Source: Clostridia bacterium (lineage in GTDB: Bacteria; Bacillota; Clostridia; Christensenellales; Aristaeellaceae). Taken from it: a DNA stretch of 64,000 nt. This document shows positions 25,871 to 57,832 of this stretch, piece by piece. The notes below the pieces were generated by a model. The model was not told the origin of the DNA. It did no database searches and saw nothing but the letters and a program-made list of their open reading frames with translations. Location of the stretch: assembly GCA_017501255.1 (NCBI GenBank), contig JAFVXE010000018.1:49950-113949 (forward strand), in the 5' to 3' direction. Each line of letters starts with the position of its first letter. Position 1 is the first letter of the stretch. The position numbers were made by a program, and so were the translations under genes.

Positions 25871-25946
25871 GGGGCATTAGCGCAGTTGGTAGCGCACAAC
25901 ACTGGCAGTGTTGGGGTCAGGAGTTCGAGTCTCCTATGCTCCACCA
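25871..25946 (+). tRNA. tRNA-Ala (anticodon GGC), CCA encoded
   Basis: Hand-folded 76-nt cloverleaf: 7-bp acceptor stem with G3:U70, anticodon loop CTGGCAG, T-loop TTCGAGT, discriminator A, CCA. Confidence 0.95.
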
Positions 25947-25953
25947 TACCGGA

Positions 25954-26005
25954 GAAATCCGAACTTGATTCCTGTGGGGAACGGGTTCGGATTTCTTCTT
26001 TATTT
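25954..26005 (+). terminator. terminator after tRNA-Ala
   Basis: GAAATCCGAAC/GTTCGGATTTC stem followed by a T-rich tract. Confidence 0.7.
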
Positions 26006-26103
26006 CAAAGAAATAGAATGCTGATGGAATGTTCCATTGGCATACAGAAAAAGCAGGACTGCGATCCATATCACAGTTCTGCTTTTTTCTATGAAAGAAA
26101 CAC

Positions 26104-26157
26104 TTTACACATTCTTTACCTTCTCAGTATTTGTTTGAAACACTCCGGCAGTATGAT
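26104..26157 (+). promoter_or_regulatory. candidate Pho box plus -10 element for the pst operon
   Basis: Direct repeats TTTACA (26104) and TTTACC (26115) are 11 bp apart. TATGAT -10 at 26152. No good -35. Confidence 0.4.
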
Positions 26158-26194
26158 TCCATCGTACCCGAAAGAAGAAAGGAAGGTAGAAAGA

Positions 26195-27043
26195 ATGAAA
26201 AAGCTGATTTCCATCCTGTTGACCCTGACCCTGCTGATGACCACCGCCTTTGCCCTTGCTGAGGAGATCAATGTCATCTCACGCGAGGATGGCTCCGGTA
26301 CCCGTGGCGCGTTCATCGAGCTGTTCGGCATTGAGCAGAAGAACGAAATGGGCGAAAAGATCGACTACACCACCGACGACTGCGACATCACCAATTCCAC
26401 CTCCGTTATGATGACCAGCGTGGCGGGCAATGACTGCGCCATCGGCTACATCAGCCTCGGTTCCATGAACGATACCGTCAAGGCGCTGCCCATCGACGGT
26501 ACGGAGGCTTCTGTGGAGAACATCAAGAATGGCAGCTACAAGGTGGCCCGTCCCTTCAACATTGCCACCAAGGCTGAGGTAAACGACGCTGCCAATGACT
26601 TCATCGCCTTCATTATGAGCGCAGAGGGTCAGGCAATTGTAGAAGAAAACGGCTACATTGCCGTGGTGGAAGACGCCTCCGCTTTTGAGGGCGGCAAGGT
26701 GTCCGGCAAGATCGTCATTGCCGGTTCCTCCTCTGTCACGCCTGTGATGGAAAAGCTCAAGGAGGCCTATGAAGCCATCAACCCCAATGTGGAAATCGAG
26801 CTCCAGCAGAGCGACTCCTCCTCCGGCATGACCGCCACCATGGACGGCGTGTGCGACATCGGCATGGCCTCCCGTGCCCTGAAGGATTCCGAAACGGAAG
26901 CGGGTCTGGTACCCATGACCATCGCCATGGATGGTATCGCTGTCATCGTCAGCCCCGAAAACCCCGTGGAAGGCCTGACCTCCGAGCAGGTGCGGGATAT
27001 CTACATGGGCGAGATCACCGAGTGGAGCGAGGTTAATGAATAA
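26195..27043 (+). CDS. pstS: phosphate ABC transporter substrate-binding protein
   Basis: Start at ATG 26195 (MKKLISILL, signal-peptide-like N-terminus, no lipobox Cys) with RBS GGAAGG. PstS-family sequence. The long track ORF reads through the tRNA and is rejected. Confidence 0.9.
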   Translation: MKKLISILLTLTLLMTTAFALAEEINVISREDGSGTRGAFIELFGIEQKNEMGEKIDYTTDDCDITNSTSVMMTSVAGNDCAIGYISLGSMNDTVKALPIDGTEASVENIKNGSYKVARPFNIATKAEVNDAANDFIAFIMSAEGQAIVEENGYIAVVEDASAFEGGKVSGKIVIAGSSSVTPVMEKLKEAYEAINPNVEIELQQSDSSSGMTATMDGVCDIGMASRALKDSETEAGLVPMTIAMDGIAVIVSPENPVEGLTSEQVRDIYMGEITEWSEVNE

Positions 27044-27899
27044 GTTCAAGGTTCAGGCTATGAAGGAGGGCGCTGCGAAAGTGGCGTTCACCTTCACGGC
27101 CCTTGTTTCCATTCTGGCGGTAGCGCTGATCTGTCTGTTTTTGTTCGCCAATGGCATCCCCGGCATGGCGAAGATCGGCGTATGGGATTTCCTCTCCGGG
27201 GAAAAGTGGAAGCCCGGGCAGGAGGTATTTGGTATCCTGCCATTCATTCTAGGTTCGGTATATGTAACCGCTGGGGCGCTGGTGGTGGGTGTTCCCGCTG
27301 GACTTCTGACAGCGCTGTACCTGTCCCGTTTTGCTTCCCAAAAGGCTGCCAAACTGCTGCGCCCCGCCGTGCAGCTGCTGGCGGGCATTCCCTCGGTGGT
27401 GTATGGCTTCTTCGGGCTGGTGGTGTTGGTGCCGCTGGTTCGGGAAGTTTTCGGTGGTACAGGCTCGTCCCTGCTGACAGCCAGCGTGCTGCTGGGCATG
27501 ATGATCCTGCCCACCATCATCACCGTGGCAGAATCTGCGCTGAACGCTGTGCCCGCTTCCTACTATGAGGGCGCGCTGGCGTTGGGGGCCACCCATGAGC
27601 GCAGTGTGTTCCATGTGATTTTCCCGGCAGCCAAATCCGGCGTAATGGCGGGTATCATACTAGGCATTGGCCGTGCCATTGGCGAGGCTACCGCTGTGAT
27701 GATGGTGGCTGGCAACCGTACCTCCATGCCCAAGGGCCTTTTGAAGGGCGTGCGAACTCTGACCAGCAATATCGTCATTGAGATGGGCTATGCCACCGAC
27801 CTGCACCGGGAGGCGCTGATTGCCACCGCTGTGGTGCTGTTCGTGTTCATCCTGCTGATCAACGTACTCACCAGTATCCTCAAAAGGAGGTCAGACTGA
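27036..27899 (+). CDS. pstC: phosphate ABC transporter permease
   Basis: 287 aa, 6 TM, EAA-like loop. Overlaps the pstS stop. Confidence 0.9.
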   Translation: MNKFKVQAMKEGAAKVAFTFTALVSILAVALICLFLFANGIPGMAKIGVWDFLSGEKWKPGQEVFGILPFILGSVYVTAGALVVGVPAGLLTALYLSRFASQKAAKLLRPAVQLLAGIPSVVYGFFGLVVLVPLVREVFGGTGSSLLTASVLLGMMILPTIITVAESALNAVPASYYEGALALGATHERSVFHVIFPAAKSGVMAGIILGIGRAIGEATAVMMVAGNRTSMPKGLLKGVRTLTSNIVIEMGYATDLHREALIATAVVLFVFILLINVLTSILKRRSD

Positions 27900-28750
27900 T
27901 GCGTGCAAAGGTTCAAGCCACATTCTACCGGTCCGCCGTGTATGCGGGTACCGTTTTTTCGGTGGGTGTACTGCTGCTGATCGTGGGGTATATCCTCATC
28001 AAGGGCATTCCCAACCTGTCACCGGAGCTGTTTGCATGGAAGTATAACTCCACCAATGTTTCCATGATGCCCGCCATCATCAATACCCTGCTGATGACGC
28101 TGCTTTCCCTGCTGGTCTGCGTACCGCTGGGCATCGGCGCGGCCATCTGGCTGACGGAATACGCCCCGCGAGGCAGCAAACTGGTGAAGCTGGTGCGCAT
28201 GACGGCGGAAACCCTCTCCGGCATTCCCTCCATCATCTATGGCCTGTTCGGTTCGCTGTTTTTCGTGGTTGCGCTGAAGATGGGATTGTCCCTGCTGTCC
28301 GGTGCGCTGACGCTGAGCATAATGGTATTGCCCACCATTATGCGCACTACGGAGGAAGCCCTGCTGGCAGTGCCGGACAGCTACCGGGAGGGCAGCTTCG
28401 GCCTTGGTGCGGGGCGGCTCCGTACCACCTTCAAGGTGGTTCTGCCCAGCGCAGTACCAGGCATCCTCTCCGGCGTGATTCTTGCCATCGGGCGCATTGT
28501 GGGCGAAACTGCCGCCCTCATCTATACCGCCGGTACCGTTGCCAAGGTGCCGGGCAGTCTGCTGGATTCCACCCGCACGCTGGCGGTGCACATGTACACC
28601 ATTTCCACCGAGGGTCTGTACATCGGTCAAAGCTATGCCACCGCCGTGGTGCTCTTGGGTATGGTGCTGCTGATCAACAGCCTGTCTGCGTTCATTGCCA
28701 AAAAAGTCGGACACAGCACAACAGGCAAACAGGAGGAAAAGCACTCATGA
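27899..28750 (+). CDS. pstA: phosphate ABC transporter permease
   Basis: 283 aa permease, translationally coupled to pstC. Confidence 0.9.
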
Positions 28751-29493
28751 AAATAGAGATCAACAACCTTGACTTGCATTACGGCAGTTTTCACGCCCTG
28801 AAAGGCGTGAATCTGGCCATTCATGAAAAAGAGATCACCGCCTTTATCGGCCCCAGCGGCTGTGGCAAATCCACGTTGCTGAAAAGCCTAAACCGCATGA
28901 ACGACTTGGTGGAGGGCTGCAAAATCACCGGGCAGGTGCTGCTGGATGGCATGGATGTATACAAGGAAATGGATGCCGCCCTGCTGCGCAAGCGGGTGGG
29001 CATGGTGTTCCAGAAGCCCAATCCCTTTCCCATGAGCATTTATGACAACATCGCCTTTGGCCCCCGCACCCATGGTATCCATTCCAAGGCCAAGCTGGAT
29101 GATATCATCGAGCGCAGCCTGCGCAATGCCGCCATCTGGGATGAACTGAAAGACCGCCTGAAAAAGGACGCGCTGGGACTGTCCGGCGGTCAGCAGCAGC
29201 GGCTGTGCATTGCCCGGGCGCTGGCGGTGGAGCCGGAGGTTCTGCTGATGGACGAGCCCACCTCCGCCCTTGACCCCATCTCCACCAGCAGGATCGAAGA
29301 CCTTGCCCTGCAGCTCAAGCAGGACTACACCATCGTCATGGTGACCCACAACATGCAGCAGGCTGCCCGCATCTCTGACCGAACCGCCTTTTTCCTGCTG
29401 GGTGAAGTGATCGAATACGACGAGACCGGCAAAATTTTCTCCATGCCCAAGGATCAGCGCACGGAGGACTACATCACCGGCCGCTTTGGCTAA
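28747..29493 (+). CDS. pstB: phosphate ABC transporter ATP-binding protein
   Basis: Walker A GPSGCGKS, signature LSGGQQQR, Walker B LLMDEP. Confidence 0.95.
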
Positions 29494-29506
29494 GGAGGAA
29501 CATCCC

Positions 29507-30163
29507 ATGAGAAACCGTTTTGACGAGCAGCTGAGCCTGCTCAACCACGAATTGCTGGAAATGGGCGCGCTGGTGGAAAGCGCCATCCGCAGCGCCACTA
29601 CTGCATTGGTGAATCAGGATGTGGAGGCGGCCCTTGCCTCCATCACTGCCGATAAGGATGTGGATCAGGCGGAGCGGGATAGCGAATCCCTGTGCCTGAA
29701 ACTGCTTTTGCAGCAGCAACCTGTAGCAAGGGACTTGCGCTTGATCTCCTCAGCCCTTAAAATGATAACGGATATGGAGCGCATCGGTGATCAGGCCTCT
29801 GATATTTCCGAGATTGTCATCTACCTGTCCAGCGAGCCCTATATCAAGCAGCTGGAGCATCTGCCCCTGATGGCGGAAAAGGCTATCCGTATGGTGACGG
29901 CTGCGCTGGATGCCTATGTCCGCAAGGATGTGAAGCTGGCGCAGGAAGTGATGGATATGGATGATGAGATTGACAGCCTGTTCACCACCGTGAAGGACGA
30001 GTTGATCACCCTCATCCGGGGCGATGCGGCAGCCGGCTCCCAGGCCATTGACCTGCTGATGATCGCCAAGTACTACGAGCGCATCGGCGACCACGCCCAG
30101 AACATTGCCGAGTGGGTGGAATACGCCCTTACCGGGCGGCACAAAGGAGTTTTCCTCACATGA
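29507..30163 (+). CDS. phoU: phosphate signalling complex protein PhoU
   Basis: Two PhoU repeats. Start at ATG 29507 with RBS AGGAGG. Confidence 0.9.
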   Translation: MRNRFDEQLSLLNHELLEMGALVESAIRSATTALVNQDVEAALASITADKDVDQAERDSESLCLKLLLQQQPVARDLRLISSALKMITDMERIGDQASDISEIVIYLSSEPYIKQLEHLPLMAEKAIRMVTAALDAYVRKDVKLAQEVMDMDDEIDSLFTTVKDELITLIRGDAAAGSQAIDLLMIAKYYERIGDHAQNIAEWVEYALTGRHKGVFLT

Positions 30164-30837
30164 TCTATTACGTTGAAGACGATGACAACATCCGGGAATT
30201 GGTGGTTTACACCCTTCTGCAGATGAACATGCCCTGTCGGGGCTTTGCAGAGGGCAAGGCCTTCCGGACTGCCATTGCAGAAGAAAAACCCGATCTGGTG
30301 CTTCTGGACATCATGCTGCCCGGGGAGGACGGCATGAGCCTGTTGCAGTTTCTCCGGGAAAACCAGCAGACGGCGGAGATCCCTGTCATCATGCTCACCG
30401 CCAAGGGTACCGAAATGGATAAGGTGCAGGGGCTGGATCACGGAGCGGATGACTACATGACCAAGCCCTTCGGCATGGCAGAGCTGGTGGCCCGTATCCG
30501 GGCCCGCCTGCGCCGCACAGGTACAAAAACAGATGCGGAGACACTTCGTTGCGGTACGCTTTCCATCGACCGCCGTGCCCACAAGGCCTTTGTTGATGAT
30601 GAGGAAGTGCCCCTGACCTTGAAGGAATATGATCTGCTGCTCCTGCTGATGGAAAACAGCGGCGCCGTTTTTACCCGGGAGCAGCTATTGGAGCGCATCT
30701 GGGAGATGGGCTATGACGGCGGTAGCCGCACAGTGGATGTGCATGTGCAGACGCTCCGCAGCAAGCTGGGGCACTGCGCCTGCATGATCGAAACCGTGCG
30801 CGGCGTGGGCTATCGGTTTGGAGGCGATCCGGCATGA
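30160..30837 (+). CDS. OmpR-family response regulator (Pho regulon type)
   Basis: Receiver domain (DD...D...K) plus a winged-helix C-terminus. ATG 30160 overlaps the phoU stop. Confidence 0.9.
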   Translation: MIYYVEDDDNIRELVVYTLLQMNMPCRGFAEGKAFRTAIAEEKPDLVLLDIMLPGEDGMSLLQFLRENQQTAEIPVIMLTAKGTEMDKVQGLDHGADDYMTKPFGMAELVARIRARLRRTGTKTDAETLRCGTLSIDRRAHKAFVDDEEVPLTLKEYDLLLLLMENSGAVFTREQLLERIWEMGYDGGSRTVDVHVQTLRSKLGHCACMIETVRGVGYRFGGDPA

Positions 30838-32492
30838 CCAGACGCATTTTCCGCAGCATCGTTCTGACGGCGGTGCTGGCACTGCTGCTGACCTCCGCGC
30901 TGCTGGTAGGGACGCTGTACAATGTGTACGAAGACCGCATCTCTGCCGAGCTTCGGACGGAGGCGGCGTATATTGTCCGCGGTTTGGATATGACGCAGGA
31001 TGATTTGAGCTACTTCACATCATTCAAGCCCCAAAACCGTGTAACGCTCATTGCCCCGGATGGTTCGGTGCTCTACGACAGCGATACCGATGAGACCCGC
31101 ATGAGCAGCCATGCCCAGCGTCCGGAGGTGCTCGCGGCTATCGAAAGTGGCACCGGTGAAGCCACCCGCTATTCCGATACCCTTTCTGAAGTGACGATCT
31201 ACTATGCCCGCCGAACGGCTGACGGCAATGTGCTGCGTATCGCCAGCACCCGCTCTTCTGTGCTGGGTGTCTTCCTGAGCGTGGCCCCGCAGATCATCGT
31301 GATGCTGCTGGCGGTGGCAGCCCTGTCGCTGCTGATCGCCCAGCATTCTTCCCGCCAGATCGTGCAGCCCATCAACGAGCTGAATCTGGACGAACCCCTT
31401 GAAAACGACGTGTATGACGAACTGGCCCCGCTGCTTACCCGCATGGACAAGCAGCATCATCAGATCCGCCAACAGATGCAAGATCTCGCCCGCGCCCACG
31501 CTGATCTCAACGCCATTATGGAAAGCATGCGCGAGGGTCTGATCCTGTTGGACAGGGAGAGTCGCATTGTTTCCATCAACCACAGCGCGCAGACCATCTT
31601 TGGCGTAAAGGATTCGTTTGCGCCGGGAGCTGACCTGCTGACCATCTGCCGGGATGCTGACCTGCTGGAAATCGTCAAAGCAGCGCAGTCGGGCGAAGCC
31701 GGCGATGCGATCCTGCCCCGTGACAGCCGGATGTACCGCATCTTTGCCAGCCCTGTTCTGCGGGAGGAAAAGGTGCGCGGTGTGGTGCTGCTGGCGTTGG
31801 ATATCTCTGCCCGCTATGCTGCTGAAGCCAGCCGCCGGGAGTTTACCGCCAACGTCTCCCATGAGCTGAAAACGCCGCTCACATCCATTTCCGGCTACGC
31901 AGAGATCATCGAGAGCGGCATTGCCCGGCAGGAGGATGTGCCTGCCTTTGCCGGAAAGATCCATGCAGAGGCAAAGCGGTTGGTAGCACTGGTGAACGAT
32001 ATTCTTGAGCTGTCCCAGCTGGATGAGAAGCAGGGTCTTGGGGCGAAAGAGCCGGTTGCCTTGCTGCCCATGCTGAATGAACTGGCTGACCGTTTCCTGC
32101 CTGTTGCGCAGGAGAAAGGGGTTGAGCTGTCCGTAGAAGGCAGCGAGGCTACCGTGGATGGCTATCCGATGCTTCTGCGGGAACTGTTCCACAACCTGAT
32201 GGACAATGCCGTCAAGTACACGCCTGCAGGCGGCAGCGTGACCGTTCGGCTGTCACAGCAGGATGGACGCCTCTGCTGCTCTGTACAGGACACCGGTATC
32301 GGCATCCCCAAAGAGCATCAGGCCCATGTGTTTGAGCGTTTCTACCGGGTGGACAAGAGCCACTCCAAGCAGACCGGCGGCACCGGGCTTGGGCTGGCGA
32401 TCGTGAAGCATGCGGCGCAGGTGCATCAGGCACAGGTGGAGCTGGAAAGCCAGCCGGGGGAAGGCACTACGGTTTCTGTGCTGTTTCATTGA
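30834..32492 (+). CDS. sensor histidine kinase (PhoR-like)
   Basis: 552 aa with 2 TM, a PAS region, H-box SHELKTPLTSI, and N/G boxes. Confidence 0.9.
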   Translation: MTRRIFRSIVLTAVLALLLTSALLVGTLYNVYEDRISAELRTEAAYIVRGLDMTQDDLSYFTSFKPQNRVTLIAPDGSVLYDSDTDETRMSSHAQRPEVLAAIESGTGEATRYSDTLSEVTIYYARRTADGNVLRIASTRSSVLGVFLSVAPQIIVMLLAVAALSLLIAQHSSRQIVQPINELNLDEPLENDVYDELAPLLTRMDKQHHQIRQQMQDLARAHADLNAIMESMREGLILLDRESRIVSINHSAQTIFGVKDSFAPGADLLTICRDADLLEIVKAAQSGEAGDAILPRDSRMYRIFASPVLREEKVRGVVLLALDISARYAAEASRREFTANVSHELKTPLTSISGYAEIIESGIARQEDVPAFAGKIHAEAKRLVALVNDILELSQLDEKQGLGAKEPVALLPMLNELADRFLPVAQEKGVELSVEGSEATVDGYPMLLRELFHNLMDNAVKYTPAGGSVTVRLSQQDGRLCCSVQDTGIGIPKEHQAHVFERFYRVDKSHSKQTGGTGLGLAIVKHAAQVHQAQVELESQPGEGTTVSVLFH

Positions 32493-32604: not shown

Positions 32605-34293
32605 TTAACCCTGCACAGCCTCCGCAGCCGTTTCCTTGCCAAAGAGCTTCTTCACGCCCTGGACGGCAACGATCACGCCCAGCACGAACAGCGCAACGGC
32701 AAAGCTGCCCTGCAGCAGGTCGCCGCCCAGATTGGCGGTGGTGCCGGTAAAGATGCCGCCGAACTTGCCAAAGATGGTCATGCCCAGAGCGGTCAGGGTC
32801 ACAGCCAGCATGATGGCCATGGGGGCCCACAGCATCCAGCCCTTGCGCTTGGTGCGCTTGAGGAATACGGCGCAGGCGATGAGGGCCAGTGCGCTGAGCA
32901 GCTGGTTGGCAGAGCCGAACAGGGGCCAGATGTTGGCATAGCCCGCCTTGGCAAGGGCGTAGGCCATCACCAGCGTAGCCACGGTGGCGGTGTACTTGTT
33001 GGTGAGGAACTTCTTGACCGGACTCATGTTTTCATCGGTGTCGGTGGAATCAAGGAAGAACTCCTGGAAAGCCAGACGGCCTACGCGGGCAACGGAGTCC
33101 AGCGAGGTGAGGGCGAAGGCAGATACGGACAGGTTGATCAGCGTAAAGGCCACGTTCTCGGGGATGCCGATCTTGCCCAGGAAGCCGGAGATGGCAGAGG
33201 CAAACACCACAGCCGGAGTACCGGAAGCCACCTGCGCGCCACTGGACACAGCGCCCACAGCGATCAGGGCGATCACGGCCAGCAGGCTCTCCAGCAGCAT
33301 AGAACCGAAGGAGATGGGCAGCATGTGCTTCTCATTCTGCACCTGCTTGGAGGCGGTGCCGGAGGAAACCAGCGAATGGAAGCCGGAGACAGCGCCGCAG
33401 GCGATGGTCACAAACAGGATGGGGAACATATGCTGACCGTTGACCGTAAAGCCATTGAAGGCGTTCAGGTTCATCTGGGGATTGGCCACCAGCACGCCCA
33501 CCACAGCCGAAACGATCATGGCTACCAGCAGGTAGCTGTTCAGGTAGTCACGGGGCTGGAGCAGCGCCCACACCGGCACGATGGAGGCAACAGCGATGTA
33601 CAAGAATACGATCAGGTGCCAGGTGCCGGTGGGCACATACATGGGCAGCGCCATGCCCAGCACGATGCAAAGCACCAGCAGGCCCACCGCGATGGCGGTA
33701 TTCACCAGCGGTTTGAAGCGGCACACCTTCAGCACCACGCCCAGCGTGACCGCTGCAAGGATGAACAGCATGGAGGTGGTAGCCACCTGACCGTTCGCCA
33801 GCGAGACATCCGGAGTGGCGGCAAAGCCGTTGAAGGTATTGGCAACCACGTCCGCAAAGGCAGCAACCACAAGGATGGAGAATAGCCAAACAAACAAGGT
33901 AAAGAGCTTTTTACCGATCTTGCCGATATACAGCTCAATGATATAGCCGATGGTGCGGCCCTTATTGCGAACAGAGGCATACATGGAAACAAAGTCCTGC
34001 ACAGCGCCGAAGAACAGGCCGCCTACCAGCACCCACAGCAGCACCGGCACCCAGCCGAAGATCGCCGCCTGAATGGGGCCGTTGATGGGGCCAGCGCCGG
34101 CAATGGAGGCAAACTGGTGACCGAATACCACACCGGGGGTGGTGGGGGTATAGTCTACACCATCCTCCATTTCATAAGCAGGGGTCTTTGCCTTGGGGTC
34201 GATGCCCCAGGTCTTGGCCAGCCAGCGTCCGTAGAGAAGATATCCTGCGCCCAGCACAACCAGTGCGATGAGCATAATGGTGATTCCATTCAT
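32605..34293 (-). CDS. cstA: carbon starvation protein A family transporter
   Basis: 562 aa multi-TM with a CstA-type N-terminus (MNGITIMLIALVVLGAGYLLYGRWLAK). Start at ATG 34293 with RBS AAAGGA. The upstream part of the track ORF is the T-box leader. Confidence 0.9.
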   Translation of the reverse strand: MNGITIMLIALVVLGAGYLLYGRWLAKTWGIDPKAKTPAYEMEDGVDYTPTTPGVVFGHQFASIAGAGPINGPIQAAIFGWVPVLLWVLVGGLFFGAVQDFVSMYASVRNKGRTIGYIIELYIGKIGKKLFTLFVWLFSILVVAAFADVVANTFNGFAATPDVSLANGQVATTSMLFILAAVTLGVVLKVCRFKPLVNTAIAVGLLVLCIVLGMALPMYVPTGTWHLIVFLYIAVASIVPVWALLQPRDYLNSYLLVAMIVSAVVGVLVANPQMNLNAFNGFTVNGQHMFPILFVTIACGAVSGFHSLVSSGTASKQVQNEKHMLPISFGSMLLESLLAVIALIAVGAVSSGAQVASGTPAVVFASAISGFLGKIGIPENVAFTLINLSVSAFALTSLDSVARVGRLAFQEFFLDSTDTDENMSPVKKFLTNKYTATVATLVMAYALAKAGYANIWPLFGSANQLLSALALIACAVFLKRTKRKGWMLWAPMAIMLAVTLTALGMTIFGKFGGIFTGTTANLGGDLLQGSFAVALFVLGVIVAVQGVKKLFGKETAAEAVQG

Positions 34294-34371
34294 TCCAAAA
34301 CATCCTTTCTTTTTTGTTTCGCTTATCTCTGGCATTTGCGCCGCGGTCGCATCCGTCGGGGAAAGCGTGCT

Positions 34372-34676: not shown

Positions 34677-34699
34677 TTGAATATGTGGCTTACGCGAAT

Positions 34700-34729
34700 A
34701 AAATACGCCTGCTTTGCCCAATTTGTCAA
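34700..34729 (-). promoter_or_regulatory. promoter of the T-box/cstA transcript
   Basis: On the minus strand: TTGACA (34729-34724), 18-nt spacer, TATTTT (34705-34700). Confidence 0.45.
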
Positions 34730-50683: not shown

Positions 50684-51222
50684 CCGTATGGCAGGCCATG
50701 GCAAGAATAGAAGCGCTTGGTTATTCTCTTCGATTAGATGAATCTGGGCGGGTTGCCGCACGGATAGCTGGTAGTGAGCCAGAAGAAGCTGAGGTGCTAT
50801 TCCAAATTGCCAGTACTGATCGGATCGCTGCAGCTGATTATGTGAGAATGAGGCAAGAAGGGACTTCTGTGGTTGATGCTGGGCAGAATATGTCCCTTCT
50901 GGATGCGCTGGCGATTGGTCAGGCAATAAGGAAGCATGAGGCGGAAATGATGGGAACCGTGCGGCTGATGACTGCTGATATGTCTGTTTGTCTTTGGTGG
51001 TATCCCATCAATGGGGAAACAGCCTCATCTTTGCTGGAGCGCCACCGAGAAGCTCTTGTTACTGCCATCCAAAGAAGGTTGGAAAAGATGGATAACAGCG
51101 AATGGTGGAATCTGTCGCCCACGGAATATGATGCGTTTTGCCAGAAATACGGTTTTTTGTGTTGGTTGATAGGAAAGCAGGAGGGAAGACATGGCATTGA
51201 CACACTGGAAGAAGCTCGATAA
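50680..51222 (+). CDS. hypothetical protein
   Basis: 180 aa. ATGA overlap with the upstream gene. Coding-like composition. Confidence 0.6.
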   Translation: MTVWQAMARIEALGYSLRLDESGRVAARIAGSEPEEAEVLFQIASTDRIAAADYVRMRQEGTSVVDAGQNMSLLDALAIGQAIRKHEAEMMGTVRLMTADMSVCLWWYPINGETASSLLERHREALVTAIQRRLEKMDNSEWWNLSPTEYDAFCQKYGFLCWLIGKQEGRHGIDTLEEAR

Positions 51223-51697
51223 TCCGGACTACATTGGCGCTTATGCTTTCCAGCCCGGGGAAAAGAAAACTGTTACCATCGATCGGATCAGACGCGAGAT
51301 GGTTAATGGTCCAGATGGCAAACGAGAGGAATGCACGGTCGTGCATTTTCGTGAAAAGGAAAAGCCTTTGATCTTGAATGCCACCAATGGAAAGATGATC
51401 TCCAGACTGGCAGGCAGTCCCTATGTTGAGGACTGGGTTGGCTTGCGGATTGTGCTGGGTGTTGAGAAAGTAAAGGCCTTTGGAGACGTAGTAGATGCAG
51501 TGCGGGTGAAAAACGAAAGGCCGGCGGAGGAAACGAATGCGCCTGCGCTTCCTCTTTGTTCAGATTGTGGCAATGTGATAAAGGCGTTCGGTGAATGGTC
51601 TGCTCCCCAGATCGCAGCTTCAACGAAGAAACGTTTTGGAGCACTTTTGTGTATGGACTGTGGCAATAAGAGAAAGGATGCGCAGCAGAATGAATGA
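51191..51697 (+). CDS. phage-type hypothetical protein with C-terminal zinc ribbon
   Basis: RBS GGAGGG. C-terminal CSDCG...CMDCG pair. Confidence 0.65.
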   Translation: MALTHWKKLDNPDYIGAYAFQPGEKKTVTIDRIRREMVNGPDGKREECTVVHFREKEKPLILNATNGKMISRLAGSPYVEDWVGLRIVLGVEKVKAFGDVVDAVRVKNERPAEETNAPALPLCSDCGNVIKAFGEWSAPQIAASTKKRFGALLCMDCGNKRKDAQQNE

Positions 51698-51881
51698 TGT
51701 TTACTGTAGCTTTCTTATGAAAAGCGAAGATGTGGGACCAACGATTGAGGCATTGCTGGCTAGCCAGCGTGAAGCAAGAATGACAATCCGGCAGCTCAGA
51801 GCAGACAATGCTCGGCTTATGCGAGAATTACAGGATGAACGCAAGAAGCACGATGGGCAAAGCGGGGAGGAGCAATTATGA
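51690..51881 (+). CDS. small coiled-coil hypothetical protein
   Basis: 63 aa. ATGAATGA overlap with the upstream stop. Its stop overlaps the next ATG. Confidence 0.4.
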   Translation: MNDVYCSFLMKSEDVGPTIEALLASQREARMTIRQLRADNARLMRELQDERKKHDGQSGEEQL

Positions 51882-52705
51882 TACTGACACCTGAGAACTA
51901 CTACAGCCTGCGGGCCAATCAAGAGTTTTTTAGCGTCAGTCAGGTGAAACAGTTTGATTCTTGCGAAGCATGCGCTATGGCAGAACTTGCTGGGGAATAT
52001 GTGCGGGAAAAGACAGTAGCGCTTCTTGTGGGCGGATATGTAGACGCCCATTTCAGCGGTGAACTGGAGGTGTTCAAGAGTGAGAATCCCGAGATCTTCA
52101 CCAAGAAGGGTGAACTGCGCAGCGAGTACCAGCAGGCCGAAAACATCATCGCCCGTATAGAGCGTGATGCCTTGGCTACGCGTATGCTCTCTGGAGAAAA
52201 ACAGCAGATCCTTACGGGCCAGATTGCTGGATTTCCATTCAAAGCGAAGCTTGACTGTTGGCTGGATGAAGCCTCCGCCCATGAGATTGCCAAGTCGTTT
52301 CCGGAGATGGGAGAACTGTTTTTCTCCGCTGGCGCCATTGTTGATCTGAAGATTGTGAAAGACTTCGTGCCGCTGTACCGTGATGGAGAGGGACGCTTGA
52401 ACTTCATCGAATACTGGAGCTATGACCTGCAGATGACTGTCTATCAGGAACTGAAGCGGCAGCAGATCGGTGAACAGGTACCGTGCTTCATTCTAGCGGC
52501 AACCAAGGAGCATGTGCCTGATTTGGGGTTGTTCCAAGTGCCTCAATCCCTGATGGATGCCAATCTTGTGCTGCTGAAAGACCGGCTGCCCCATTTGGCG
52601 GATGTGAAGGTCGGCAGAGAGCCGGCGGAGGCATGCGGTAGCTGCGATCATTGCAAGACCGTGAAGGAGTTGACAGGTGCGGTTTGGCTGGAGGAATACG
52701 TTTGA
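51878..52705 (+). CDS. PD-(D/E)XK nuclease (phage exonuclease / Cas4-like cysteine pattern)
   Basis: 275 aa. An IVDLK motif, N-terminal CxxC and C-terminal CGSCDHC suggest an Fe-S cluster. RBS GGAGGAG. Confidence 0.7.
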   Translation: MILTPENYYSLRANQEFFSVSQVKQFDSCEACAMAELAGEYVREKTVALLVGGYVDAHFSGELEVFKSENPEIFTKKGELRSEYQQAENIIARIERDALATRMLSGEKQQILTGQIAGFPFKAKLDCWLDEASAHEIAKSFPEMGELFFSAGAIVDLKIVKDFVPLYRDGEGRLNFIEYWSYDLQMTVYQELKRQQIGEQVPCFILAATKEHVPDLGLFQVPQSLMDANLVLLKDRLPHLADVKVGREPAEACGSCDHCKTVKELTGAVWLEEYV

Positions 52706-53172
52706 CCATCTACGTTGATACCAGAGAAAAGCCGCGCGCTATCCGCGGTACTCTGGCGGAATTTGACCGGCAGGGCGTGACGGTGATCCACCAGAAGCTG
52801 GAAGAAGGAGATTACAAAACAGCGCCTGACGCACTATTCACCATCGATCGCAAGCAAAGCCTGGGCGAACTGTGCAGCAATCTGTCATGGGAAAAAGGAC
52901 GGTTCCAGCGCGAGCTTGCCCGGGCGAAAGCCAAAGGAGAAAAGCTTTGCGTGTTGGTTGAGAACTGCGGCGGGATCCGCACACTGGCTGATGTGGCTGC
53001 GTGGCACAATCCTCGTCTGAAGGAATCGCCCAGGGCTCTCAATGGGCCGCAGCTGTACAAGCTGATGCTGGTATACGCCGCGCAGTATGGCGTGGAATGG
53101 CGTTTCTGCGATGCGAAGGACACAGGCCGGGAGATCGTCAGGCTTCTGGCAGAGCATATGGAGGATGAATGA
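52702..53172 (+). CDS. ERCC4-type nuclease
   Basis: VDTREK...GDY...DRK motifs. TTG 52702 overlaps the upstream stop, with RBS GGAGG. Confidence 0.7.
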   Translation: MTIYVDTREKPRAIRGTLAEFDRQGVTVIHQKLEEGDYKTAPDALFTIDRKQSLGELCSNLSWEKGRFQRELARAKAKGEKLCVLVENCGGIRTLADVAAWHNPRLKESPRALNGPQLYKLMLVYAAQYGVEWRFCDAKDTGREIVRLLAEHMEDE

Positions 53173-53486
53173 ACAGCAAGAAAAAGGGAAATGCAGGCGA
53201 ACGTGAACTGTGCGCCATATTGGCGGAGGCTGGTGTCGCGCACAGAAATGACCAGCGCTATGTTGGCGGTATCGATAATCCGGATATCAGTCTTGATGTA
53301 GCCGGAACCAAATATCATGTGGAGTGCAAACGAGCAGAGCGCTTCAACGCCTACGAGGCTATGGGACAGGCTGAGAGGGACGCCAATGGTCACGCTGTAC
53401 CGCTGGTTGTGCACCGACGCAATCGCAAGCCGTGGCTTGTGGTAATGAAGCTTTCTGACTGGCTGAAGCTGATTGGTCGCAAATAA
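53169..53486 (+). CDS. Hjc-like PD-(D/E)XK Holliday-junction resolvase
   Basis: 105 aa with GNAGERE...D...ECK. ATGA coupling to the upstream gene. Confidence 0.65.
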   Translation: MNSKKKGNAGERELCAILAEAGVAHRNDQRYVGGIDNPDISLDVAGTKYHVECKRAERFNAYEAMGQAERDANGHAVPLVVHRRNRKPWLVVMKLSDWLKLIGRK

Positions 53487-53548
53487 GAAAAAGCCCCGCA
53501 TCCGCAAGGGCTGTCTGTTGAATTCATTATAAGGCGGGTGCGGGGCAT

Positions 53549-54196
53549 ATGCAAGACTTGGGCTTGGTGATTTGTGTCGCAAAAAGGTATCTTCCCTACT
53601 GTGACAGAGCTAGTGACTTTGATGATCTGGTACAGGCTGGCCTGTTGGCTTTGATTCGTGCAAAGGCTTCATATCGGGCTGATAAAGGCGCTTGGTCAAC
53701 ATGGGCAGTATATTATATGCAGAATGAAATGCGGGCTGCAATTGGCTTGCGCGGCACAAAAAGAAGGCCTGAAAGAGATGCTGTTAGCCTTGATGCGCCT
53801 ATTTCAGAAGATGGTCTCACCTTGTTGGATACATTGGAGGCAGGATCGGTAGAACTGCAGGAAGGGATCGACCGTGATCAATTGCGCCAGCTTGTGAGAG
53901 AACGTGTGGCTGCACTAAAGAATGAGCAGCAACGGCAGGCTGTTGTTTTGATCGATCTGGGTGGCTTGAGTATCAATGCTGCAGCTGAACTGTCGGGAAC
54001 TACTGTAGCGAGGATGAGAACGGCCAGAGGGCATGCGTACAACAGGTTGCGTGCTGATCCTGTTCTGAGAGAACTGGCGGAGGCTTACGGATTGTGGCGG
54101 CGTAGTTATGAGCATTGTGGATTACGATCATTTCTCTGCAACTGGACAAGCAAAACGGAAGCGGAAGCTTTGGATCATATTGAACGAGGACAATGA
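53549..54196 (+). CDS. sigma-70 family sigma factor (late-regulator position)
   Basis: Region 2 (FDDLVQAGLLALIRAKASY) and region 4 HTH (SINAAAELSGTTVARMRTARGHAYNRL). Confidence 0.75.
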   Translation: MQDLGLVICVAKRYLPYCDRASDFDDLVQAGLLALIRAKASYRADKGAWSTWAVYYMQNEMRAAIGLRGTKRRPERDAVSLDAPISEDGLTLLDTLEAGSVELQEGIDRDQLRQLVRERVAALKNEQQRQAVVLIDLGGLSINAAAELSGTTVARMRTARGHAYNRLRADPVLRELAEAYGLWRRSYEHCGLRSFLCNWTSKTEAEALDHIERGQ

Positions 54197-54769
54197 TAGT
54201 CGACTGATTGGATACGGTGTCCCCCCCCTCCTGCGGTGACAAGGACGGGGAACCACCAACCGGCGAGGGGCACCATTTACACACGCGGGAGTTTTTTCGG
54301 GGGTTGGGGGATAGCTAACAAACGAAGTAAATTCAACGAAAGTGCCTTGATTGATGTTGAATCTGATACCAAAATGTACCTGGAATAATCCGATTGTTTA
54401 TGGTATTTAGATGGCGAGCGTGATGCTCTCAACAGTAAAAAATCAACCTGACAGAGAGTAGTAGCTATCTTTTCACGCGCATAACCACATTCCTTTGAAT
54501 AGGTGGAATACAAGCAAACCAACAATGAATTGATGCTTGGAGTGTTGAAAATGATAACAAAAAGCTCGCATTTGAGTGGAACGTTGCAAGAATGGCTTGC
54601 CTCTGGGAAGTGTCCTCCGCCTCACATTGCAAGAAGCGCCAAGTTTTCGAGAGAAGATGGGGCGCTTTTCTTGATGCTGAACAAATCACAGGTTTGCTCT
54701 ACCTAGATCATGTCCATGTTTGCATCTGGTGAAAAATCTGCTGTGGTACATGCTTTGTATGAGAGAAGC

Positions 54770-55130
54770 TGTGTGGGGAGGACGGGCCCACCCGCTGCCC
54801 AGAGTGGCACCGTCTGAACGGTGATCAAACGGTGGTTGTACTTTAGGAAATCCCACAAAAAGGAGGGGGTGACGGCCTGCCCGCTGCTTTGGTCGCTCTC
54901 CCGGTAAGCATATACCGGGGGAATGCACCAGTTGTTTCTATATTATCAAGAGAGACTTAGGCACCCACTGGAGCGGCCTCAGAATCGCCGGAAACAGCCT
55001 CCGCGGGGCAGATCCGAGCAGCAGGAAGGGTAGCCAATCTCCGGCTTCCCAGAGTGCCCTTACGCCGCGGTGGAGCCGTTGGGCAAGTGGGCGGGCCGAC
55101 GTGAAGACCTGTTCACGGTAGTTGAAGAAA
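54770..55130 (+). ncRNA. candidate large structured RNA (core of a 1 kb ORF-free region); class unknown
   Basis: No credible ORF between 54197 and 55213. GC-rich core with nested helices: 54785-800/55081-97, 54960-71/55049-58, 54987-92/55040-45. Hairpins at 54808-23, 54900-19 and 55100-17. Strand is tentative, based on G:U pairs. Confidence 0.35.
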
Positions 55131-55170
55131 AACCATGCTCATACAGTTCTCTGTTAATATCAGTCGCTGA

Positions 55171-55207
55171 TTGAAAATCCCGGAAGGCCAATCTGCCCTC
55201 CGGGATT
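55171..55207 (-). terminator. terminator of the minus-strand three-gene operon (hairpin usable on both strands)
   Basis: 11-bp stem AATCCCGGA(A)GG/CCTCCGGGATT, followed by TTTT on the minus strand. Confidence 0.7.
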
Positions 55208-55213
55208 CTTGCT

Positions 55214-55342
55214 TTATGGTTGCTTCTGGTAGGCCCGCTCTAGGATCAGCCACACACGGGTCAGTACCTTTTCGTCTTCCACCTTCTGCGCCAGCTTGGC
55301 GATCTCTTTTCTGGTATCTTCTTTGGTGGTCTTCTGTTCCAT
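55214..55342 (-). CDS. very small hypothetical protein
   Basis: 42 aa from ATG 55342 with RBS AGGAGG. Confidence 0.45.
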   Translation of the reverse strand: MEQKTTKEDTRKEIAKLAQKVEDEKVLTRVWLILERAYQKQP

Positions 55343-55416
55343 GAAAGATTCCTCCTGTTGTATTGTTGTGATGGTGGTTCTATGTCCTTTGTATAATGCT
55401 CCATACAAGGGACTCA

Positions 55417-55680
55417 TTATACAATGACCAGCCTGTGGACTATGGTGGTTTTTGTGAAGCGCTCAGCCAACTCGGGCAGTTCTTTGCGCAGCGCATTGGT
55501 ATCAAGACGACTGCTGGTGATTGCCTTGTTGGTAATCCTGTATGCTCCAACGGTGACTTCCTCACGATCGCCAATGGCGGTGCGAATGTCATTCTTGAGG
55601 GCATCCATTTCGGTATTCAATTCCTCCGCCATTCGTTGCAGCTCTTTTAGTTCGTGGACTTTCGCTTCTAGTTTCTTCAT
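55417..55680 (-). CDS. hypothetical coiled-coil protein common in Firmicutes mobile elements
   Basis: 87 aa from ATG 55680 with RBS AAAGGAG. Confidence 0.6.
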   Translation of the reverse strand: MKKLEAKVHELKELQRMAEELNTEMDALKNDIRTAIGDREEVTVGAYRITNKAITSSRLDTNALRKELPELAERFTKTTIVHRLVIV

Positions 55681-55694
55681 GCCGACTTCTCCTT

Positions 55695-56012
55695 TCAGAT
55701 GTTGCGACAGGCGTACTTGCACAGACCTACAGTCTTGCCTTCCATGACAGCCAGCCCGTCGGCATCGCAGGGAACCAAGAGAGCAGCATGGAGGATGTCG
55801 TATTTATGCTGTTGATGGATGTCTGTGATACTCTGAGCCAGATTAAGCAGATAGGTTCTGATAGCAGCTTTAGCATTTTCCAGATGGAAGGTGTAAACCT
55901 TCTTGCCTTTCGCCTCCGCCCAGGCCAGGCGCAGAGCGGTAGTCATGGTGTAGCCCTTGGATTTGCGCAGTTGCCATGCACGGTTCATGATCATCACCAT
56001 ACTGTACTTCAT
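55695..56012 (-). CDS. hypothetical protein
   Basis: 105 aa. RBS AAAGGAGG before ATG 56012. First gene of the minus-strand operon. Confidence 0.6.
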   Translation of the reverse strand: MKYSMVMIMNRAWQLRKSKGYTMTTALRLAWAEAKGKKVYTFHLENAKAAIRTYLLNLAQSITDIHQQHKYDILHAALLVPCDADGLAVMEGKTVGLCKYACRNI

Positions 56013-56200
56013 TGAGTAGGCCTCCTTTGTTAGGTTTCCCCGCAGCGGTGGTGGGCTTTAAGCATCTAGTCTCTGCTGGACGTCTCAGTCTCCCTTATCC
56101 GATACCACTCTTACCTTGCGTTCTTGGTTTCCCTTGCGGTACTTTCGTCCGCCTTGGCTGCGGGGTTCAGCTTGGGGGATCCCCTTGCTGTGATTGTATG
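56013..56200 (-). promoter_or_regulatory. GC-rich structured leader (or ssDNA element) upstream of the three-gene operon
   Basis: On the minus strand, CCCCGCAGC pairs with GCUGCGGGG and encloses ~115 nt holding further helices. A 23-nt imperfect palindrome around GGGGGATCCCC lies at 56168-56190. Confidence 0.35.
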
Positions 56201-56205
56201 ATAAC

Positions 56206-56303
56206 ATATAGCTAGCTATATTGCAATTGACACACCACACAAATTAGCTAGCTATATTTTGTGCAAATCGTATATTGCTAGTTATATATTTCTGGTGTAG
56301 AAT
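56206..56303. promoter_or_regulatory. three operator-like palindromes plus promoter of the RHH gene
   Basis: ATATAGCTAGCTATAT (56206-21, perfect), TAGCTAGCTATAT (56245-57), ATATTGCTAGTTATATAT (56272-89). Promoter TTGCTA (56275), 17-nt spacer, TAGAAT (56298). Confidence 0.55.
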
Positions 56304-56335
56304 TATTGTTGTGGTGGAAAAGGAGGTAATAACCA

Positions 56336-56551
56336 ATGGCCTACAACGAGGCGCAGAAGAAGGCAACCATGAAATATCAAAAAGAAAAACTTGAGCAAAT
56401 TGCAATTCGTGTCCCCAAGGGAGATCGAGCCGCCTTGAAGGAAGAAGCCGAGCAGCAAGGCCAAAGCATGGCACAATATATCATTCAGGCTGTCAACGAT
56501 CGTGCTGGAAGGCAAGTACTTACTCCGGCTGAAACCAAAGCAGAGGATTAA
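56336..56551 (+). CDS. ribbon-helix-helix (Arc/MetJ-like) DNA-binding protein
   Basis: 71 aa. KLEQIAIRVPKGDRAALKEEAEQQGQSMAQYIIQAV fits a beta-alpha-alpha RHH. RBS AGGAGG. Confidence 0.65.
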   Translation: MAYNEAQKKATMKYQKEKLEQIAIRVPKGDRAALKEEAEQQGQSMAQYIIQAVNDRAGRQVLTPAETKAED

Positions 56552-56704
56552 AGATAAAACAGGCTCTAAGCGACCGTAGAGGCTGCTGCAAAAGAGACTG
56601 GGGAAAGATCAACCTGTACACGCAAAAGGCTTTACTGGCCCGTATGGGGCTTCCTGAGTGGCCTCCTGTGGAAGAAAACGACTAAATTACGAAAGGATCA
56701 CGAG

Positions 56705-56733
56705 TTGACAATATATCATCCGTGATATATAAT
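56705..56733 (+). promoter_or_regulatory. consensus promoter with embedded palindrome for higBA-like operon
   Basis: TTGACA, 17-nt spacer, TATAAT. The palindrome ATATATCA-TCCG-TGATATAT (56711-56730) spans the spacer and runs into the -10. The ATG is only 5 nt after the -10. Confidence 0.6.
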
Positions 56734-56737
56734 CGAG

Positions 56738-57091
56738 ATGGAGAAATGGCGCATACTATTTTATGAGACGCCTGCGGGCAATTCGCCAGTAAAGGATTTC
56801 ATTCGTGGGTTGAGTGCGACCAAGCGTGCAGCAACCATCGAAGAAATTGATTTGCTGGAGGAGTTCGGTATTGAGCTGGGCATGCCTCATGCACGTCCTT
56901 TGTCAGATGGTATATGGGAGCTTCGTGGCAGGGCGGAGGATGGCTTGATTCGTATTCTGTATTTCACACCTAGCAAGGAGCGCCGTGCATTTGTGCTTCT
57001 GCATGGTGTTGAAAAGGATCAGCGCACAATCAGTGACACAGACCGAAAGACAGCCCTCAAGCGCAAGAAGGATTATGAAAGAAGGAGCTGA
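56738..57091 (+). CDS. RelE/HigB (phage Gp49-like) toxin
   Basis: 117 aa with the MEKWRILFYETPAGNSPVKDF...ILYF...VLLHG pattern typical of Gp49/HigB-type toxins. Confidence 0.8.
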   Translation: MEKWRILFYETPAGNSPVKDFIRGLSATKRAATIEEIDLLEEFGIELGMPHARPLSDGIWELRGRAEDGLIRILYFTPSKERRAFVLLHGVEKDQRTISDTDRKTALKRKKDYERRS

Positions 57092-57095
57092 TAGC

Positions 57096-57389
57096 ATGAC
57101 CGACTGGAAAGAGTTTCGGGAAGAACTACTCCAGGATCCCGAGGTGAAGGAGGCATATGAGGCTCGCGCCGTAGAACGTGAGCTCGCCCGTGCAGTGCTT
57201 CAGCAGCGGGTTGCCCAGAAAGTAACCCAAAAGGAGATGGCTGAAAAGATGGAGGTCCCTCAGGGGAACGTATCCCGTCTGGAGAGCGGAACCCGTGTTC
57301 CGACTATTGGAACATTGCAAAAGGCAGCTCAGGCGCTCAACGTGCCACTTGAGATCCGTTTTGGCAATCAGGTGGTTCGTGTAAATTGA
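57096..57389 (+). CDS. XRE-family HTH antitoxin (HigA-like)
   Basis: 97 aa from ATG 57096 with RBS AAGGAG. HTH VTQKEMAEKMEVPQGNVSRLESG. Confidence 0.8.
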   Translation: MTDWKEFREELLQDPEVKEAYEARAVERELARAVLQQRVAQKVTQKEMAEKMEVPQGNVSRLESGTRVPTIGTLQKAAQALNVPLEIRFGNQVVRVN

Positions 57390-57396
57390 ATACTTT

Positions 57397-57418
57397 GCAG
57401 GCTTCGGCCTGCTTTTTC
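57397..57418 (+). terminator. rho-independent terminator after the antitoxin
   Basis: GCAGGC-TTCG-GCCTGC followed by TTTTT. A second hairpin plus T7 lies at ~57441-57468. Confidence 0.75.
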
Positions 57419-57476
57419 TTTATCCTCCGCCGTCACTTCCGCAAGCGCTTGCGCTTTTTTTCAGGGAAGGACGGTA

Positions 57477-57649
57477 TTTGTCATGGTTTGTCATGGGTTT
57501 GTCCGGTGATTTGGCATGGGCCTAAATCATTGTGGAACAAGGGATTTCTTTGATTCGTCATATTTGTCATGGAAACGATAAAGCTAATTTTGAAGTCATT
57601 TATTCTTTATTTTGAAACATAATATTATGACAGTAACAATGACAGTAAC
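57477..57649. repeat. integrase arm-type site cluster (right arm)
   Basis: TTTGTCATGG at 57477, 57487 and 57563. TGACAGTAAC at 57628 and 57640 (12-bp period), matching the left-arm sites. Confidence 0.6.
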
Positions 57650-57749
57650 GGTGATGAGACTAGATGTTCTTTGTTACTATTTTAGAGGCAGAAACACATT
57701 GAATTTATGGACTTGATGGTGCTGGATGATCCTGCATAAAACTACTGTT

Positions 57750-57799
57750 CAACACTGGCAGTGTTGGGGTCAGGAGTTCGAGTCTCCTATGCTCCACCA
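57750..57799 (+). repeat. attR: exact 50-nt copy of tRNA-Ala nt 27-76 (anticodon stem to CCA)
   Basis: Checked base by base against 25897-25946: identical 50/50. The base before the block differs. Confidence 0.9.
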
Positions 57800-57800
57800 G

Positions 57801-57832
57801 AATCGGAAATTCGTAAGGATTTCCGATTTTTT
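57801..57832 (+). terminator. native-looking tRNA terminator downstream of attR
   Basis: AATCGGAAAT/ATTTCCGATT stem followed by TTTTTT. Confidence 0.7.

Follow-up and report, generated by a model that had tools for sequence, protein, structure and literature searches.

A serine-recombinase element probably inserted at the CCA end of a tRNA-Ala(GGC) gene, after a tyrosine-integrase island, in a gut Clostridia genome

How the 3′ part of a tRNA gene came to stand, together with a terminator, at a distance from the only tRNA in its neighborhood is the question raised by a 64,000-nt stretch of a Clostridia bacterium genome (GenBank assembly GCA_017501255.1, contig JAFVXE010000018.1, positions 49,950–113,949; hereafter, the window). 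This stretch contains a single tRNA gene, a tRNA-Ala(GGC) found by ARAGORN and Rfam, and the 2.9 Mb, 61-contig assembly contains one Ala(GGC) gene copy in total. Nucleotides 27–76 of the gene recur as an exact 50-nt direct repeat (25897–25946 and 57750–57799; repeat family D4), a 22-nt piece of which occurs at two places only in the window when up to three mismatches are allowed (0 expected by chance). An earlier reading of these letters alone (hereafter, the sequence-only reading) had correctly recognized the repeat and the tRNA-style terminator that follows it, the sole full tRNA at 25871–25946, and the lack of an intact tRNA beside the tyrosine integrase (46649–47803). It offered two explanations, namely, that one tRNA locus was hit twice, the second time by a serine-recombinase element enclosing pst through macAB at about 25.94–46.38 kb, or that a second tRNA-Ala had been lost. 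The outline of the first explanation stood up: we assign a rough probability of 0.78 to two nested integrations into this tRNA gene, the second by a serine element that extends from about 25947 to 46386 (20.4 kb), in which a left arm is followed by 14 kb of cargo and then by a mobilization and recombination core of 6.4 kb. Its placement of the crossover and its account of the origin of the shared bases did not. The features of the two junctions are as follows.

25871–25946, + strand: intact tRNA-Ala(GGC); left junction of both elements
25897–25946, + strand: left copy of the identity block of the tyrosine-integrase island (island B), tRNA nt 27–76
25937–25946, + strand: left copy of the 10-bp common core TGCTCCACCA, a direct repeat with 46377–46386
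25947–26010, + strand: left arm (P′) of the serine element, with half-site TACCGGAGAAATCCGAAC, which also forms the 5′ stem of the terminator at which the tRNA transcript now stops
44914–46401, + strand: large serine recombinase, 495 aa (Pfam PF00239 Resolvase, PF07508 Recombinase, PF13408 Zn_ribbon_recom)
46354–46376, + strand: right arm (P) of the serine-recombinase site, containing GGTTCGGAT, the invariant G-S-D codons
46377–46386, + strand: right copy of the 10-bp common core, which ends every element copy, whatever the flank

The gene at 44914–46401 has the domain content of a large serine recombinase, with an N-terminal Resolvase domain, a Recombinase domain, and a zinc ribbon, and it is one of a large family in the Oscillospirales. 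Homologues numbered in the thousands when 5.8 billion proteins were searched; the best 120 of these are 488–859 aa long and cover 99% of the query. When 32 homologues were aligned, the last invariant residues were A489-P490 (GCT CCA); beyond them the tails diverge and consist of translated terminator hairpins or host genes. The window protein ends in the same manner (last codons G S A P P V E N A, stop): its open reading frame (ORF) passes through the 11-mer TGCTCCACCAG at 46377–46387 into the next hairpin, and the final four codons plus the stop are supplied by island B DNA past the junction. Some homologues are annotated as fusions to RuvC (PF02075) or to a low-molecular-weight phosphatase (PF01451; P0037, P0043, P0065, 787 aa; P0048–P0055, 680 aa), and these fusions probably represent read-through into a host gene beyond the junction. 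The source genome holds a second recombinase of the same family on contig C37 (G000:C37:32066-32507; 70% DNA identity), and a short relaxase-like match lies about 4 kb beyond the right end of the window (C10:118278-118332).

Taken alone, the 11-mer is weak evidence; chance copies of the same letters are present in other coding regions of this genome. It acquires meaning from its context, since every copy of the element ends in TGCTCCACCA and is then followed by a tRNA-type terminator. Six near-identical copies were found (the window, L058, L079, G024:C4, G043:C38, and G043:C12), and in each of them TGCTCCACCA precedes a different rho-independent terminator; that of the L079 copy is of the native tRNA-Ala(GGC) type, as in the relative G021 and at 57800 of the window. 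Positions 40024–46386 (6363 nt) show 93% identity to metagenome contigs, and this similarity stops exactly after CCACCA. One BLAST match that appeared to carry the G024 copy into the terminator at 46393–46430 was rejected, as the sequence there is a different hairpin. As far as DNA comparisons can tell, the occurrence of the same element at six flanks shows that it has moved in the past. The 10-mer is best described as a shared recombination core that is mostly borne by the element. The sequence-only reading was right that the 11-mer is present and that the ORF reads through it, but not in regarding it as a decayed remnant of a tRNA.

To characterize the opposite end, we fetched 80 loci with homologous recombinases from species-representative genomes, and in 22 of these loci the recombinase gene is preceded by a tRNA on the plus strand. 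At nine or more loci, the last 8–11 nt of the tRNA recur at the recombinase end, 6–10 kb away, and the tRNAs found at the left end include Ala-GGC, Ala-CGC, Val-GAC, Val-CAC, Met, Leu, and Ser. No copy of the element has a tRNA adjoining the relaxase. All ten family loci compared have the half-site ATCCGAAC 8–12 nt past the repeat on the tRNA side, and all ten have GTTCGGAT, which encodes the invariant G-S-D, ahead of the repeat on the recombinase side. In the window, 16 of 22 bases of the left arm form an inverted repeat with 46354–46375 (p ~3e-5, nine registers allowed), so that two inverted half-sites surround a short overlap and direct repeats stand at the junctions, as in an attachment site. 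A locus with an 80% identical recombinase (L080) has a tRNA-Ala(GGC) followed by ...GGAGAAATCCGAACC...GGGTTCGGATTTC, the same hairpin as at 25947–26010, and its inner arm bases covary with those of the window (GTGA/TCAC versus GGTA/TACC). On account of the L080 hairpin, the conserved half-sites, the match between the arms, and this covariation, we identify the hairpin behind the tRNA, which could pass for a pst terminator, as the predicted left half-site of the serine element. Of 43 genus genomes, five carry the same hairpin, in every case immediately behind the end of a tRNA, and identical copies stand behind three different tRNA species within G043. We place the junctions of the serine element at 25937–25964 and 46354–46386 with good confidence.

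The position of strand exchange can be narrowed further. In CCGGTA-GTGCTCCACCA-TACCGG, the centre of dyad symmetry coincides with the CC of TGCT-CC-ACCA. Where the element lies at tRNA-Val(CAC) ends, in G024 and G043, AGCACCACCA is retained on the left and TGCTCCACCA on the right, which places the exchange 3′ of core position 4. The crossover was thus probably made within the last six tRNA bases (CCACCA), at the CC of TGCT-CC-ACCA, an exact position deduced from the arrangement of the arms and junctions, and not near tRNA nt 65/66 as the sequence-only reading had it. About 4–6 bases of the 10-mer would then be derived from a tRNA; of the 11-mer, most would be element-borne core, with about ACCA and the final G coming from the tRNA that island B had rebuilt.

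The DNA to the right of the serine recombinase belongs to island B, whose features are as follows.

46387–57749, + strand: island B (Pfam; inverted arm repeats; GC ~0.50 versus 0.59 in the core genome)
46387–46431, + strand: G plus terminator hairpin, where the left arm of island B starts; the second insertion has moved it away from the tRNA
46649–47803, − strand: tyrosine integrase (PF00589, PF14659)
57750–57799, + strand: island B right junction, the original tRNA nt 27–76
57800–57835, + strand: native tRNA-Ala(GGC) terminator; the same hairpin lies directly 3′ of the intact tRNA-Ala in G021, and the P0001 copy abuts the same type

Island B is an ordinary, satellite-like tyrosine-integrase tRNA island of about 11.4 kb. 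Its Phage_integrase-family gene is on the tRNA-proximal side and its far repeat is the 3′ part of the tRNA, whereas the intact tRNA does not adjoin the integrase-side arm and lies 20.4 kb away, a separation probably due to the later insertion of the serine element and not to the absence of a site. Inverted repeats at 46573–46615 and 57477–57519 (repeat family I2) mark the two arms. Other genes recognized with Pfam encode a repressor-like HTH protein, a CHC2 primase, DUF3987, three nucleases (PD-(D/E)XK, ERCC4, and one other), a sigma factor, and a HigBA-like pair (Gp49/HTH); no virion genes were found in the island. Because the hairpin at 57800 directly follows the intact tRNA-Ala in G021, positions 57750–57835 represent the original 3′ part of the tRNA gene with its native terminator. 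On the other side, the flank upstream of tRNA-Ala is 93% identical to G021, and this identity ends exactly at the last base of the tRNA. The terminator at 46393–46430, which the sequence-only reading had called element-borne, belongs to the left arm of island B. It is homologous to the terminators after tRNA-Ala in G017 and after tRNA-Val in six other loci, and is of a type common after tRNA genes in the genus. GC content is ~0.59 in the flanks and from 26 to 39.7 kb and ~0.50 across 39.8–58.4 kb, and pgi starts at 58506, to the right of both elements.

These junctions suggest the following order of events. Island B would first have integrated at the anticodon loop of the one tRNA-Ala(GGC) gene, rebuilding the gene with its own nt 27–76 and its own terminator and leaving the original nt 27–76 and native terminator at 57750–57835. 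The serine element would then have recombined with the last bases of the rebuilt tRNA, using an attachment site in which the half-sites GGTTCGGAT...CCGGTA and TACCGG...ATCCGAAC surround the 10-bp core, a copy of the tRNA 3′ end. Strand exchange, probably at the central CC, would have kept the tRNA intact and placed behind it the left arm of the element, which is also a terminator. The present tRNA-Ala would accordingly be a composite, with nt 27–76 from island B and the last few nucleotides and the terminator from the serine element, and the recombinase gene at the right end would read over the junction into the displaced terminator of island B. Island B is the probable first arrival for two reasons: with the serine element as the earlier arrival, island B would be expected between tRNA and left arm, and not to the right of the recombinase; and the nucleotide next to the core, 46387, is a G, matching the one behind CCACCA at 57800. 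The insertion would part the core site of island B in the tRNA from its left-arm integrase-binding repeats (46458–46605) by 20 kb, and island B is therefore probably locked, with its own excision impaired, until the serine element leaves. On excision, the 20.4 kb circle would join 46386 to 25947 and read ...GCCGGTAGTGCTCCACCATACCGGAG..., and the relaxase would serve mobilization by a helper conjugative element.

The content of the proposed element between its left arm and its recombinase is as follows.

26120–32492, + strand: cargo; pstS, pstC, pstA, pstB, phoU, response regulator, PAS histidine kinase (Pfam)
32605–34482, − strand: cargo; cstA (Pfam CstA)
34821–35996, + strand: cargo; 391-aa gene, for which a family search found none
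36105–39719, − strand: cargo; MacB-type permease, ABC ATPase, HlyD-type adaptor (Pfam)
40024–46386, + strand: conserved 6.36 kb core, 93–97% identical in metagenome contigs, G024:C4, and G043
40033–41802, − strand: MobA/MobL relaxase (Pfam), in the core

After the relaxase, the core encodes an unknown gene, an HTH protein, a sigma-70-like protein, a Phd/ParE pair, and the large serine recombinase (Pfam). With its own integration module and a MobA/MobL relaxase and no mating-pore genes, the element has the composition of an integrative and mobilizable element; neither VirB4 nor a coupling protein was seen in 25.9–46.4 kb, no oriT was located, and the MobA/MobL relaxase and DUF3847 are present in relatives. 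Among the genus genomes, the core occurs at ≥90% identity only in the source genome (G000), G024, and G043, all three of which are among the five with the hairpin. Hairpin and core lie on one contig in three cases, always in the same orientation, with the hairpin 14–24 kb to the left of the core and with different cargo:

Window: 14 kb; pst through macAB, GC 0.58
G024:C4: 24 kb; CoA-enzyme activase, kinase, ABC exporters, FtsH-like, MacAB-like
G043:C39 (L202, G043:C39:2000-17300), at tRNA-Ala(GGC): 14.8 kb; GC 0.41; MORN, PP2C, VWA, protein kinase, FtsK-like, ADP-ribosyltransferase

The last of these resembles a set of conflict or defence genes. Similarity to the core begins at varying points from 40024 to 40100 inside the 3′ end of the relaxase gene, which suits a cargo or mosaic boundary and not a recombination site. 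Within the window cargo, the cstA/391-aa block (32605–35996) stops at 35997 in several relatives, and MacAB-like pump genes occur elsewhere in the genus in G015 only (69–81%). The 31 kb element at the G024 tRNA-Val(CAC) locus is flanked on either side by a ~300-nt repeat unit, in which a 200-nt spacer separates a terminator from a partial 3′ end of tRNA-Val (L170/L171; G024:C4:5870-6280 and 37015-37290). This suggests an array of old junctions; tmRNA ends were rejected as the origin of these repeats, which are partial tRNA-Val(CAC) copies.

Whether pst travels with the element was addressed by its surroundings in relatives. In G043, the hairpin, ~60 nt, and pst follow a partial tRNA-Ala(CGC) with an identical junction (93% identity over 4 kb), and in G024 the hairpin and pst, again with an identical junction, follow a partial tRNA-Val(CAC) (89%, with an extra Na/Pi cotransporter gene). 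More distant members of the genus have pst at 65–71% identity with no tRNA upstream, and pst-flank synteny in divergent relatives gave no usable pattern. A metagenome contig with pst and the two-component system adjoining a relaxase (L059) was rejected as proof of pst cargo, as a possible hybrid or misjoin, because sister contigs show another relaxase-bearing TnpV/TnpW element at that spot. The first explanation of the sequence-only reading would have been undermined by relatives lacking the element in which pst is fixed beside this tRNA; instead, pst was found after different tRNAs or none. Comparison across genomes documents the attachment sites, how they are conserved throughout the family, and the recurrence at other tRNAs both of the element and of its left arm joined to pst; the serine element may still be mobile at present. 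It is fairly probable, with less assurance than for the junctions, that the whole 20.4 kb moved as one unit.

Several observations weigh against an element of this extent. The GC content of the cargo is host-like (0.58, versus 0.50 for the element core) and would suit ordinary chromosomal DNA, the pst-phoU operon is the only copy in the genome, and in G024 the pst block is preceded by the left arm yet lacks a recombinase core on its right side. A related hairpin stands behind tRNA-Ala in G042 and G014, where the nearest 14 kb contain no recombinase, and family elements that could be sized are mostly 6–10 kb long, not 20 kb. No clean empty site was found in relatives: those at the species level are too rearranged, the region upstream of pgi differs in each, the tRNA contig of G021 ends in an IS200 copy 145 nt past the tRNA, and on the methyltransferase side every contig with that protein also has the element. 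The assembly gives mixed support. Contigs from independent run assemblies cover 38600–41128 and 41975–57779 with no mismatch, and depth is even over flank, cargo, core, and island B in four runs; however, the run assemblies break at the tRNA, so that the path from flank through tRNA to left arm rests on the original assembly, and neither an excised circle nor an empty site was seen in them, over spans of up to 20 kb, just too short to take in both junctions. One contig of run X5 continues from 46386 into AGCAAGAGAAATCCGAACCTGATTCTGGTT, a related left-arm hairpin, and may represent either a tandem junction or a variant in its circular form.

The rival that best survives this evidence, although we consider it unlikely, holds that the hairpin is a native terminator of this type or a left arm left behind by an earlier family member since deleted, that pst through macAB is chromosomal, and that the 6.4 kb core is a separate, second insertion whose left junction was lost. 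The host-like GC and single copy of the cargo genes, the G024 arm with pst and no core beside it, and the hairpins of G042 and G014 all favor it. GC had also led the sequence-only reading to lean against one tRNA hit twice, which is the reading that the remaining evidence supports. A lost junction would need the tRNA and the left arm to have been deleted precisely beside the relaxase, and likewise in G024:C4 and G043:C39, whereas the wandering core boundary is mosaic-like rather than the trace of a lost site, and in G043 the same hairpin stands behind three tRNA species.

A second tRNA-Ala at ~46.31–46.39 kb, of which the 5′ 65 nt were deleted or rearranged when the relaxase-recombinase module arrived, is very improbable. 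Tandem tRNA-Ala(GGC) genes do exist in relatives (two in G017, 211 nt apart; two in G001, 3.8 kb apart), and the terminator at 46393–46430 resembles those of the G017 genes. The 10-mer nevertheless belongs to every element copy and requires no local tRNA, a correct left junction is present at 25937–25964, and there is no further tRNA fragment anywhere in the window. Because G024 and G043 share the architecture with no tRNA beside the relaxase, this second explanation of the sequence-only reading would need the same deletion three times. Equally improbable is a misresolved 50-nt repeat, with the tRNA in reality continuing into 57800 and beyond, and the intervening 31.8 kb forming a circle or lying elsewhere: the origin of the genome from gut metagenomes and short-word contigs that break at the tRNA with both continuations as loose ends would allow it, but depth is even in four runs, the cargo contains the only pst operon, single contigs of two other genomes show the same architecture, and the alternative resolution would be the excised form of the same nested pair, leaving the biology unchanged.

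The preferred reading, a serine element nested at the tRNA end of island B, can be set against known systems. Single serine integrases of conjugative and mobilizable elements in Firmicutes that target rumA (Tn1549/CTn5 type) have a repeat within the 3′ end of the integrase gene and exchange its C-terminus (Ambroset et al. 2016, PMC4701971). As in these, the window family has a large serine recombinase at one element end and short repeats in the target gene and in the integrase 3′ end, so that integration swaps the C-terminal tail. Unlike these, it targets the last bases of a tRNA and not the interior of a protein gene, it restores the target gene and does not disrupt it, and one element (93–97% identical) is found at tRNA-Ala(GGC), tRNA-Ala(CGC), and tRNA-Val(CAC) ends. 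Similarity to the clostridial mobilizable transposons of the Tn4451/Tn4453 type (large serine recombinase TnpX plus Mob relaxase; Guedon et al. 2017, PMC5704250) lies in the ~6 kb core with recombinase and relaxase, in the proposed mobilization by a helper, and in the TnpV and TnpW genes carried by related loci. Tn4451 inserts with low specificity and a 2-bp overlap, whereas the window family has a 10-bp core that copies the tRNA end, conserved half-sites, and, unlike Tn4451, 14–24 kb of cargo between left arm and relaxase. Neither low-specificity insertion at a GA dinucleotide nor a recombinase as first gene was found; copies end in TGCTCCACCA by a tRNA-type terminator and have intact tRNAs on the left.

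Several elements stacked at one tRNA are a well-known hotspot pattern. Island B itself resembles other tyrosine-integrase tRNA islands in its tRNA-side integrase, its 50-nt repeat of nt 27–76, its arm repeats, and its far native terminator. In contrast to tandem tyrosine-integrase arrays, the second element at this locus uses another recombinase superfamily and the CCA end of the same tRNA, hence nesting and not competition for one site. The nesting is ordinary hotspot biology, and what is of note is the serine-recombinase family, the grammar of its site, and the pst cargo. A review assigns tRNA 3′ ends to tyrosine integrases and states that mobilizable elements with serine recombinases integrate within genes (PMC5704250); the tRNA-end serine family is a clear counter-example to this generalization. 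We found no prior description of such a family in the open-access literature, and large in silico island catalogues may already list cases.

The locus also has practical implications. It provides exact boundaries for two nested elements and explains a junction that is apparently an orphan. Island finders that match each tRNA to the longest repeat of it would report a single 31.8 kb island, without the nesting, and the serine element would escape altogether any tool that looks for serine integrases within protein genes. The site can be read as a grammar in which GTTCGGAT and ATCCGAAC enclose 10 bp copied from the tRNA end, and it could become an integration tool in gut Clostridia. If the cargo reading is true, a housekeeping-type phosphate regulon resides on a mobilizable element. 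The joint proposition, that a widespread gut-Clostridia serine-recombinase family uses tRNA CCA ends with relaxed tRNA choice, that one of its lineages carries the sole pst-phoU-phoBR regulon of the host as cargo from one tRNA locus and species to another, and that it can lock a resident satellite, is tentative, and the odds are somewhat against all of its parts holding together.

Further observations concern the tRNA genes and the flanks. The two tandem tRNA-Ala(GGC) genes of G017 are identical (L052, G017:C161; 20–95 and 231–306), and each has a promoter-like flank and a terminator of the type seen at 46393–46430 in the window. Directly 3′ of tRNA terminators in G021 and G024 lies an IS200/IS605-type element with the Y1 transposase start MDKNTLAHTTWECKYHVVFAPKYRRQ (L019 1–112, G021:C69, at the contig end; L051 ~1530–1742, G024:C74). 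Upstream of the window tRNA, a stretch of ~75 nt (25422–25496) is 77–85% identical in many genus genomes; a tRNA or known RNA family was ruled out there, and a small conserved gene on the minus strand probably has its 3′ end there. Positions 57876–58283, which separate the native tRNA terminator from the promoter of pgi, contain a low-GC fragment of 135 aa with a weak acyltransferase-3 match, which was found in none of the relatives and is probably debris of yet another island. Downstream of pgi, coding sequence at 61450–61839 contains at least seven tandem copies of a 39-nt unit (63–83% alike).

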